Assembly (NCBI RefSeq): GCF_000420865.1
Contig: NZ_ATVT01000004.1
Location: forward strand, 217,718-281,717
Length of the DNA: 64,000 nt
From: Butyrivibrio sp. XPD2006
Lineage (GTDB): Bacteria > Bacillota > Clostridia > Lachnospirales > Lachnospiraceae
Direction: 5' to 3'
Shown in pieces: positions 48,001 to 51,000 of the stretch. How positions within the stretch are numbered: position 1 is the stretch's first letter; each line of letters opens with the position of its first letter. Position numbers: made by a program.

Positions 48001-51000
48001 AGAAGATCCAGCCTGACGTTGTCTTTTCAAAGGGCGGATATGTAAGTGTACCCGTAGTAAGAGCAGCAGGCCTTCTTAAGATTCCATACATTGTTCATGA
48101 ATCCGATATGACACCGGGTCTTGCCAACAGACTCAGTATGTCGGGCGCCAGCAAGATCTGCTGTAACTTCCCTGAGACCATGAGGCTTCTTCCTGCAGAT
48201 AAAGCGGTTCTTACAGGAACACCCATAAGAGAAGAGCTCGGAATGGGATCAAGAGAGGCAGGAAGAGAGCTGTGCGGATTTACAGATGACAAGCCGGTTC
48301 TTATGGTAATAGGTGGAAGTCTTGGAGCCCAGTCTGTTAATGAGACAGTCAGATATGCACTGCCAAGACTCCTTCCCAACTTCAACGTGGTTCATATTTG
48401 CGGAAAAGAGAAGATGGACAACCTTAAGCTCACAGTACCGGGATACAAGCAGTTTGAGTACGTCAAGAATGAGCTTAAAGATATATTTGCAATGGCAGAC
48501 ATTGTGGTTTCAAGAGCAGGTGCTAACTCCATCTGCGAGCTACTGGCTCTTAAAAAGCCAAACATCCTGATCCCGCTCTCGACCAAGTCCAGCAGAGGCG
48601 ATCAGATGCTTAATGCAAGGAGCTTTGAGCAGCAAGGTTTTTCAGTAGTTATTGATAATGATGACCTGGATGAGGATATCCTGGTTGAGACTATAGAAGA
48701 TCTTTACAATGACAGAGAGAAATATGTTGAGGCTATGAGCAAGAGTAATCTTCACAGTGCCACCAACACCATTGTTCAGATCATCAACGAAGAAATACAG
48801 TAAGAAAGAGGAATACCAATGATCTACAAGACAAAAGGAACATGTTCAACCCAGATAGATATAGAGGTTGATGGAGATATTATTAAGTCAGTCAAATTTA
48901 CCGGCGGCTGTAACGGAAATCTTCAGGGAGTATCAAGACTTGTTGAGGGTATGAAGGCTGAGGATGCCATTTCAAAGCTTCGCGGAATCAAGTGCGGATT
49001 TAAGCCTACATCCTGTCCAGACCAGTTATCATACGCAATAGAGCAGGCAATGAATGCATGACAAAAGGTGGCTCACATGACAGAGCGCAGAGACATAAAT
49101 GGATTAACTGAAAAAGAGTTTTTGGAGCAGTACACAGATACTCTTTATGATAAGCCTTCAGTTACGACGGATATTCTCGTCCTTGGCGTGGACGAGTCTT
49201 TCGCCAGGTTGAAGGCTCTTTTGATAAAGAGAGATGAACACCCTTACCTTGGATTCTATGCTCTTCCCGGAGGCTTTATCAAAAAGGACGAGACAGCTTA
49301 TCAGGCTGCATCCAGGAAGCTCTATGAGGAAGCGGGAGTCAGGGATGTGTACCTTGACCAGATATATACTTTCACAAGGCCCGGGCGTGATCCCAGAACG
49401 TGGGTTATGAGTATTGCTTACCTCGCCCTTGTGGGAGATGTGTCAGAAATAAAAACAACGGGCGAATGGTTTGATCTTGAGTTTGATGATGACCGGATAC
49501 GCCTATATAATGATGAGTCCGGAGCAGAGATTATTTATCCTGTAAGTGTAAAGAAATTTAAGAACGGTCGGATAGGCTATGAGAACCGGGTTGCAATTTC
49601 CGGAGAAAGAGGCGAGAAGCTTGCCTTTGATCATGTGGAGATCATTATAGAATCCATAATGAAGCTCAGGACTTTCTTTGAAAATTCGGATATTGCTTTT
49701 AACATGGTGGGTGATACCTTCACGCTGCCGGATCTTCAGGCGCTGTATGAACTGGTCCTTGGCAAGAAGCTTTATAAGACCAATTTCAGAGCACTGGTTG
49801 CGCCAAAGATCGAGGCAACAGGTGCAAAGATAAAATCCCGTATCAGCAACAAGATGTCTGCAGAATACAGATATATCGGATGATGATAGTGAATGAAAAC
49901 CTTGGAAAAGAAATTTTCCGGGGTTTTTTTATTTTTTTTGTTGACAAAGTAGTAAATTGCTACTAATATGTAATCAAGAAATAAATAGTAGCAAATAGCT
50001 ACTAATTAAAATTTCATACAAGACTAAGGAGGAGCTGGTTATGAAGTTTAAGAAATTTAACCCAAACGATTATGTAATGGTTGTAAAAAACGGAAAGATA
50101 GTGAAACAGGGACTTGGCCTGTCACTCTTCTACAATGAGCTGACCACAAATATTATGGTGGCACCGTCTACCGCATTTGACGGAGCGTTCGCCTTTGATG
50201 ATCTGGTTACCAGCGATTACCAGAGAGTGTGTGTACAGGGAGTTACGACATATATGCTCACAGATTATGAGAAGGCAACTCAGATGCTTGATTTTTCTTA
50301 CAATCGCGGAGCAGCGGTTTATGAGAAGATTGGAAGTACAATGGCGCTTCTTGAAAAGAGGATCAACAACATAATCAAAGCAATTGTGATAAGGGAAGTC
50401 AGCAAGAAGGACGTCAGAACGGTTATCAGATGTGCCGATGAGATGGCAAAGGTTATCGTCGATAAGCTTGCAGAGGATGAGGCAGTAACAAAGCTTGGAG
50501 TGAGCATCGTAGGAGTGAGCATCCTTGGCATCAATCCAAACACCGAGACCAGAAAGGCTTTGGAGGCAGCAGCCAGAGAGGAAATCTTAAAGGAGCAGGA
50601 CGATGCCATCTACATGAGGAGAAACGCAGCGATCGAGCAGGAGAGGGTCATCAAAGAAAATGAGATCAACACTGAAATCAAGGTCGCTGAAAAAGAGCGT
50701 GAGAAGGAAGAAAAAGAACAGGAGATGCTCAGATATGTACAGCAGTGTCAGCTCGATATGAAGAAAGAGGAGCAGGAAAGAGAGCAGGCAATGAAGCTCA
50801 TGGCTCTTCAGGCAGAGCTTACAATGAACAATGAGAAGCAGGAGAAAGAACAGGCGATGAGACTCAGAGCTCTGAAAGCCAATCTGGCTCTTGATACAGA
50901 GAAGCAGGAAAAGGAACTGGAACTTAGAGAAAAAGCAGCAGCAAAGAAAATGGAGATTGACAATGAAGAGATGCTTGGAAAAATCGAACTGGAGAAGAAA

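Follow-up and report, generated by a model that had tools for sequence, protein, structure and literature searches.

In a 64,000-nt stretch of the Butyrivibrio sp. XPD2006 genome (contig NZ_ATVT01000004.1, positions 217,718 to 281,717; hereafter the window), two palindromes in a near-consensus promoter very probably serve as operators for dimers of NrtR, the regulator encoded immediately upstream. NrtR would repress an operon encoding an SPFH protein and a homologue of the NADK2-type NAD (nicotinamide adenine dinucleotide) kinases, and ADP-ribose (ADPR) would relieve this repression. An initial annotation of the window had proposed two operators for the upstream Nudix regulator in a near-consensus promoter driving the downstream operon, and this proposal is upheld by the domains of the regulator, by the comparison of 16 promoters, and by the covariation of the half-sites with the recognition helix of NrtR.

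The promoter, its palindromes and the upstream regulator

The elements on which the proposal rests are as follows.

49941..49946, + strand: -35 hexamer TTGACA, read from the sequence and found by the promoter scan
49947..49965, + strand: candidate operator 1, AAGTAGTAAATTGCTACTA, with the core AGTAG-N7-CTACT at 49948-49964
49964..49969, + strand: -10 hexamer TAATAT, read from the sequence and found by the promoter scan
49986..50004, + strand: candidate operator 2, TAGTAGCAAATAGCTACTA, with its core at 49987-50003
50026..50034, + strand: ribosome-binding site AAGGAGGAG, read from the sequence, 6 nt 5' of the ATG at 50041

The two hexamers, which are separated by a 17-nt spacer and score 10/12 in the promoter scan, form a predicted near-consensus promoter of the sigma-70/sigma-A type upstream of the SPFH gene. 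Operator 1 takes up the entire spacer and extends by two bases into the -10 hexamer, and operator 2, a perfect 7-5-7 palindrome, lies between the -10 hexamer and the ribosome-binding site. The two are 39 bp apart from start to start and identical at 16 of 19 positions. The initial annotation had reported the hexamers with their 17-nt spacing as well as two 19-bp palindromes with this distance, this identity, and this symmetry of operator 2, and every one of these elements was found where it had been placed. Its location of operator 2 beyond the -10 hexamer also holds, but the span of +1 to +30 that it gave does not: with an inferred start site near 49976, about 7 nt past the -10 hexamer, operator 2 would rather cover about +10 to +28. 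Each palindrome consists of 5-bp half-sites around a 7-bp centre with A/T flanks, and the core positions are AG-N7-CT. In the 64-kb window, the 19-mer pattern with up to 3 mismatches gave 5 strand-hits where shuffled sequences gave 0.10 on average, and the exact core AGTAG-N7-CTACT was found only at 49948 and 49987 with 0.074 expected. Counts so far over expectation exclude chance as the source of the two palindromes.

It has been reported that NrtR sites overlap the promoter or lie between the promoter and the start codon (PMC2330246). An NrtR dimer bound to operator 1 would cover the spacer and reach over the edge of the -10 hexamer in the sigma-A-type promoter, leaving RNA polymerase unable to bind. 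Any polymerase that nevertheless starts would be blocked by another dimer, bound to operator 2 between about +10 and +28. Breakdown of NAD(P) would yield ADPR or 2'-phospho-ADPR (pADPR), either of which would bind the Nudix-like domain, causing NrtR to leave the DNA and the SPFH and NADK2-like kinase operon to be transcribed. For other NrtR proteins, release from DNA by ADPR and pADPR has been observed in vitro (PMC2330246), and toxin-driven NAD breakdown derepresses NrtR targets in vivo in Pseudomonas (PMC11535050). An exceedingly unlikely alternative is that NrtR binds these sites and nevertheless activates or acts dually, or that the sites mainly titrate the protein. A promoter so close to the consensus would be very strong if unrepressed, and an indirect effect of NrtR on Pseudomonas virulence genes is on record, as far as its citation in PMC11535050 goes. 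However, a site filling the spacer and another past the start are classical positions for a repressor, and the characterised NrtR proteins are all repressors (PMC2330246, PMC6800001, PMC11535050).

Operator 2 would also be transcribed, where its palindrome forms a 7-bp hairpin, and the 5' untranslated region folds with -13 kcal/mol (z = -3.4). It could thus be argued that operator 2 is an RNA-level element for mRNA stability or attenuation, with its likeness to operator 1 being secondary. We consider this extremely improbable, because the identical motif is present in the untranscribed spacer, the half-sites are invariant with no compensatory changes, and the base at position 7 frequently fails to pair with the one opposite, such as C with A in the related loci L002 and L004. 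Moreover, the hairpin is not followed by a U-tract and does not sequester the ribosome-binding site. A known cis-regulatory RNA was rejected as a candidate as well: an Rfam search of 49850-50100 returned only sub-threshold noise with nothing at gathering score, and the stem lacks covariation.

The regulator gene and its terminator precede the promoter.

49077..49883, + strand: nrtR, encoding a Nudix-related transcriptional regulator of 268 amino acids (ATG at 49077; the open reading frame tool gives a GTG at 49068)
49895..49939, + strand: intrinsic terminator of nrtR, a stem-loop at 49895-49928 followed by a T-tract (terminator scan)

By its Nudix plus winged-helix architecture, the nrtR product is a true NrtR, and its sequence is 100% identical to protein P0001 of Butyrivibrio sp. 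XPD2006. It matches Pfam NUDIX (3.8e-11, residues 47-137) and NrtR_WHD (4.1e-10, residues 210-268), both above gathering scores, and it matches the NCBIfam NtrR repressor model with 1.8e-34, which is below the equivalog cut-off. The closest relatives in the PDB are 2FML from E. faecalis, BtAraR from Bacteroides thetaiotaomicron, and the NrtR of Shewanella oneidensis (soNrtR). Arginines R41 and R98 of soNrtR, which contact ADPR, have conserved counterparts in the window protein when the alignment is read against PMC4666351, and the Nudix box is nearly intact (GX5EX7R-K-LYEEAGV). NrtR proteins of the Butyrivibrio clade carry an insertion of about 50 amino acids between the Nudix and winged-helix domains (49440-49610 of the window, residues about 125-180), which the Acidobacteriia and Melainabacteria proteins lack.

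The transcription of nrtR itself appears to be a separate matter. The murG gene and a TSCPD gene precede nrtR with 15-nt gaps, and the pattern search of the window found no operator-like site 5' of nrtR. The terminator folds with -18 kcal/mol (z = -4.1), and orthologous loci each have a different stem-loop and T-run in the same place. Since nrtR has its own terminator and no operator upstream, the promoter at 49941 opens a separate transcription unit, and nrtR is, as far as the sequence can tell, outside the control of this promoter. The initial annotation had spoken of autonomous control. This is borne out as far as control of the downstream operon by the upstream Nudix regulator is concerned, but not for autoregulation, because nrtR lacks an operator of its own and a terminator lies between.

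Conservation of the unit and covariation with the recognition helix

Conservation in relatives had been named beforehand as one of two refuting tests for the two operators. A scan with the NrtR alignment, one genome per species, gave 80 loci. The order nrtR, SPFH gene, kinase gene is kept in five of them, which come from Butyrivibrio sp. NC2007, B. hungatei, Butyrivibrio sp. INlla21, and two metagenome-assembled genomes (MAGs) labelled Spirochaetaceae and Treponema. Four more loci, with three further distinct promoters, came from searches for the records of three kinase homologues, and one of these promoters is from the cultured Treponema zioleckii. In addition, a metagenome scan for AAGTAG-N7-CTACTAATAT, which represents operator 1 with the -10 hexamer, gave at least 120 matches; among the matches listed, about 110 were chance matches without a -35 hexamer and 7 were true promoters with TTGACA directly in front. 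All 7 metagenome promoters among the matches listed carry the second operator, which was not part of the query. The promoter set thus comprises 16 distinct promoters (9 protein-anchored and 7 among the metagenome matches listed) from Butyrivibrio, rumen Treponema, and metagenomes.

The layout of -35 hexamer, operator 1, -10 hexamer, and operator 2 is present in all 16 promoters, as are the AG-N7-CT core positions, so that the arrangement proposed for XPD2006 proved to be conserved. In the protein-anchored set, TTGACA and TAATAT are invariant (9/9), and all 8 independent orthologues keep AAGTAG and CTACT of operator 1, apart from a single C-for-T change in L081. In the same set, the sequence varies freely at the five central positions of the operator, between the two operators, and in the flanks on the upstream side. 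Operator 2, for which the chance of finding the core in a 60-nt stretch of such composition is about 4e-5 per locus, is found in 16/16 promoters, 15 of which keep both AGTAG and CTACT unchanged. The exception is the operator 2 of L005 (L005:8919-8937), whose centre has 8 nt due to one extra A in an A-run; the very similar L189 has the usual 7-nt centre, and the longer centre could be either a homopolymer assembly error or a natural spacing variant. The offset between operators 1 and 2, from start to start, ranges from 25 to 39 bp across the 16 promoters. The SPFH gene is next after the promoter in 15/16 cases, and nrtR is directly upstream of the promoter in 12/16 and 2.7 kb off in one more.

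Rumen Treponema (L003, L005, and L085, labelled Spirochaetaceae or Treponema), the cultured T. zioleckii included, have the whole cassette with the same operators, and the metagenome contig L189 has a cassette very similar to theirs. Between Treponema and Butyrivibrio, the kinases are 77-78% identical and the NrtR proteins only 61-63%. The shared cassette and these identities suggest that the regulator, promoter, and targets may have been transferred together between phyla in the rumen.

The same promoter-operator unit is also found before other genes. On the metagenome contig L175 (JAEIGA010244055.1, 560-2200, minus strand), a TTGACA-operator-TAATAT-operator unit with operators 25 bp apart drives a different gene pair, consisting of a 189-amino-acid and a 292-amino-acid open reading frame, the latter with a DVTGSMG (vWA-like) motif. 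Neither product has a Pfam or NCBIfam match. The 292-amino-acid product is 34-39% identical to the product of the gene directly 3' of nrtR in ten actinobacterial loci (Herbidospora, Nonomuraea, and Micromonospora), and genes of this vWA-like type thus look like a second nrtR-linked module. The association of the L175 unit with an nrtR-linked module is an independent line of evidence for NrtR as the binder.

In Pseudobutyrivibrio, NrtR is 51% identical to the window protein and is encoded in an operon with nadE (Pfam NAD_synthase 5e-50; L006:3230-4856 and L008:1040-2660), nadE being a classical NrtR target (PMC2330246). These nrtR-nadE operons have one single-mismatch site overlapping the promoter (gGTAG-N7-CTACT or AGTAt-N7-CTACT). 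Unlike the window nrtR, the Pseudobutyrivibrio gene therefore appears from this site to be autoregulated. Two further loci, L009 and L011, have ...ACTACTA half-sites 5' of nrtR, yet no convincing palindrome could be defined there.

More distant versions of the operon carry a different half-site in the same plan. The SPFH-kinase-nrtR operons of the Acidobacteriia MAG L043 and the Melainabacteria MAG L075 have TTGACA and a palindrome running through the spacer into the -10 hexamer, closely followed downstream by a second palindrome. The half-sites in both operons are AGTGT-N7-ACACT and contain the published GT-N7-AC core. In the 75 distant loci, the 200 nt 5' of nrtR, measured from the first aligned NrtR residue, hold perfect AGTnn-N7-nnACT palindromes at 35 times the density found elsewhere, and this geometry occurs just upstream of nrtR in 8 distant loci. 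In the short divergent region between nrtR and the SPFH-kinase genes of Kineosporia mesophila (L053:7880-8000), ATCGTCA...TGACG and TCGTC-N5-GACGA are found and not AGTnn-N7-nnACT; the actinobacterial branch thus seems to use another operator type.

When half-sites and recognition helices were compared at 22 loci (a 23rd, L007, was left out because its helix was mis-extracted), the half-site class was found to track the recognition helix of NrtR across lineages, as judged from the aligned sequences. AGTGT is paired with DKRNFR[K/R] (9 loci), AGTTT with N[K/R]RNFRS (3 loci), and AGTAG with YKTNFR[A/T] (8 loci), while the one-mismatch site of Pseudobutyrivibrio is paired with the helix YKANFRI. 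In the crystal structure of BtAraR with DNA, the helix DKRNFRK reads the GTGT bases through K179, R180, N181, and K184 (PMC4666351). In the alignment to BtAraR, the invariant K and N correspond to K179 and N181, and the changed T and A/T to R180 and K184. Changes confined to the equivalents of R180 and K184 fit a half-site in which the outer AGT is kept and the inner dinucleotide is changed.

The assignment of the operators to NrtR therefore draws on linkage, the nadE operons, the L043 and L075 promoters, the 35-fold enrichment, and the helix covariation. These results also bear on the possibility that the palindromes are operators of a different DNA-binding protein encoded elsewhere and that NrtR is a mere neighbour. 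NrtR binding at these sites is predicted from sequence, the inner bases are unlike the published NrtR core (PMC2330246), and the sites occur without an adjacent nrtR in L083/L084 and in L175, all of which would suit another protein. Nevertheless, the motif follows nrtR into three contexts, namely the SPFH-kinase operon, the nrtR-nadE operon, and the vWA-like module that is linked to nrtR in Actinobacteria. In addition, the half-site changes exactly where the recognition helix changes, and in the distant versions of the operon these places in the promoter are taken by the canonical NrtR site, making an unrelated binder very unlikely.

Several points weigh against repression by NrtR through two operators as set out above. 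The promoter-operator units of L083/L084 and L175 have no adjacent nrtR and would depend on an unseen nrtR elsewhere in the genome. In L083 (L083:1305-2885) and L084 (GCA_000420845.1), both operators are located 5' of the SPFH and kinase genes, and the upstream gene, behind which lie about 470 bp of non-coding DNA, encodes a Nudix and beta-lactamase-fold fusion. The inner AG/CT of the half-site differs from the published NrtR core GT-N7-AC, and the operator motif scan of this genome covered the 64-kb window. The operators are 25 to 39 bp apart, a variation that speaks against a fixed cooperative geometry and makes operator 2 less certain in its role than operator 1. ADPR as the effector is assumed from homologues, and among the relatives of NrtR at least one responds to NAD and another to arabinose (PMC4666351). 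The nearly intact Nudix box suggests that the window NrtR might hydrolyse its ligand, and it may thus have residual hydrolase activity. Finally, beyond the presence of conserved palindromes by nrtR, we infer binding, the effector, the start site, and all further steps from sequence.

The putatively regulated operon and its neighbourhood

The following genes are located downstream of the promoter.

50041..51279, + strand: SPFH/band-7 gene, 412 amino acids, with a long coiled-coil tail (Pfam Band_7 1.9e-10)
51296..52228, + strand: predicted NAD kinase homologue of the NADK2 type, 310 amino acids (profile and PDB matches)
52254..53321, + strand: DUF4261 gene (Pfam DUF4261 4.6e-20), 25 nt past the kinase gene

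The product of the second gene is, as predicted from its sequence, a homologue of the NADK2-type NAD kinases. It has no Pfam match, and its matches to the NCBIfam NAD kinase models (1e-6) are far below the cut-off. It matches human NADK2 in the PDB with 5e-8 as a single sequence and with 1e-15 as a six-sequence profile, with bacterial NAD kinases at about 1e-3. In the alignment, GQDG replaces the GGDG of NAD kinases, and NDxF and SSSGIIxSTGxGxTGW are kept. A link of the targets to NAD metabolism would lie in this GQDG-bearing homologue, as its SPFH partner has no known NAD role. In the related loci, the kinase gene always comes after the SPFH gene. Weak matches to the NADK2-like kinase profile (E 1e-5 to 1e-4) were also observed immediately next to nrtR, on the opposite strand, in the distant loci L061:6810-7976, L035:3251-4075, and L059:6850-7869, and more divergent kinase-like partners of NrtR may therefore exist.

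The DUF4261 gene was rejected as a core member of the operon because it has no counterpart at other loci: none of the 80 related genome loci has a homologue. In L001, the closest strain among them, the kinase gene and bcp are separated by about 650 bp of other DNA. The DUF4261 gene has the appearance of an accessory, strain-specific insertion in the operon. The XPD2006 operon transcript would carry DUF4261 too and may read through into bcp and yaaA, since the scan found the operon strand to lack terminator-like sites as far as 54800. Downstream, at 53371-54575 of the window, lie the genes bcp (AhpC/TSA) and yaaA (peroxide stress), where read-through is possible, and in Clostridium sp. HCP1S3_C6 (L025:8001-10079) nrtR adjoins yaaA-bcp on the opposite strand. 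These neighbourhoods hint at a connection between NrtR, NADP supply, and peroxide stress. A known anti-phage defence system was also considered and rejected, as PADLOC gave no matches for the SPFH, kinase, and DUF4261 proteins and only a weak Nudix match for NrtR.

A broader proposal is that the SPFH-kinase pair and the vWA-like module respond to NAD(P) destruction: ADPR released by NADase toxins or phage-defence enzymes would induce a scaffold-bound NAD(H) kinase, and the regulator-promoter-operator cassette would move between phyla with the repressor re-tuned by two helix substitutions. We regard this as speculative and rather unlikely in its entirety. Its cross-phylum part rests on the sharing of the cassette by Lachnospiraceae and rumen Treponema, and on related versions in Acidobacteriia, Melainabacteria, and Actinobacteria.

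Comparison with known NrtR systems

The window adds an example to the NrtR repressor-operator units that were predicted in 2008, and the regulatory mechanism is ordinary. What is new is the lineage-specific variant of the operator with matching helix substitutions and the conservation of the promoter architecture across phyla. The results provide a clean operator model for a regulator of a rumen Butyrivibrio, and they describe a natural specificity switch, from AGTGT to AGTAG in the half-site with R-to-T and K/R-to-A/T in the helix, which could be used to read or re-engineer NrtR specificity. They also draw attention again to one NrtR-controlled module of unknown function and perhaps to a second. 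The SPFH and NADK2-like kinase pair appears under NrtR from Firmicutes to Acidobacteriia and Melainabacteria and could represent a branch of NAD(P) homeostasis that has so far gone unstudied; our full-text search of the searchable literature found no paper describing a function of this pair or linking it to NrtR by name.

In the NrtR regulons predicted by Rodionov et al. in 2008 (PMC2330246), the same Nudix plus winged-helix repressor acts on a palindrome of about 21 bp over or just after the promoter, and tandem sites occur. The window half-site AGTAG, however, is not of the GT-N7-AC type, a core that is common to 'most' NrtR motifs in that work, where divergent exceptions are listed as well, and neither Lachnospiraceae nor Treponema is among the groups listed there. 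The same study lists nrtR / nrtX-nrtY loci of unknown function in Actinobacteria-2b, Proteus, and Hahella (PMC2330246), and the window likewise has a two-gene module beside nrtR. Kineosporia (L053) has the divergent nrtR<>SPFH-kinase layout that is given for Kineococcus (PMC2330246). When the Kineosporia kinase was used as the query of a protein search, all matches were named either 'NAD kinase' or 'hypothetical'. In SEED annotations, a band-7 gene is presumably named 'OrfX' and a PpnK-type gene 'OrfY'. On the basis of synteny and these presumed annotation names, nrtX and nrtY are probably the SPFH and NADK2-like kinase genes, with the vWA-like module as a second candidate.

The initial annotation had also seen a resemblance to published NrtR operators of Firmicutes, which was not confirmed. 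The validated motifs are ATA-N-TTTA-N3-TAAAA-N2-ATA in Streptococcus and GTTTTCGA-N7-TCGAAAAC in Mycobacterium (PMC6800001). Like those in the window, they are palindromes in promoter regions, and the Mycobacterium site also has a 7-bp centre, but their sequences are unrelated to TAGTAG-N7-CTACTA, and those regulators are autoregulated whereas the window nrtR has no operator of its own. With GT-N7-AC replaced by AG-N7-CT, what the window operators share with published sites is the geometry (half-sites of 5 bp and a centre of 7 bp, about 21 bp in all) and the outer AGT/ACT.

In terms of tandem arrangement, the window resembles the prs-nadV promoter region of Shewanella oneidensis, in which two operators each bind a dimer of NrtR (PMC2330246; PDB 3GZ5/3GZ6/3GZ8). 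soNrtR, whose fold is homologous to that of the window protein (E 2e-22), is released by ADPR and pADPR. In contrast, its targets are PRPP synthetase and NadV and not an SPFH protein and kinase, its Nudix box is degenerate with K for the second E of EE where the window protein keeps YEE, and it lacks the interdomain insertion of about 50 amino acids. BtAraR (PMC4666351; PDB 5BS6/5DD4) differs from the window system in its effector, L-arabinose, in its role in sugar utilisation, and in its canonical GTGT half-site. Nevertheless, the recognition-helix framework K-x-N-F-R-x is common to BtAraR and the window NrtR, and it is this common framework that allows the change from AGTGT to AGTAG to be matched to the R-to-T and K-to-A/T substitutions.

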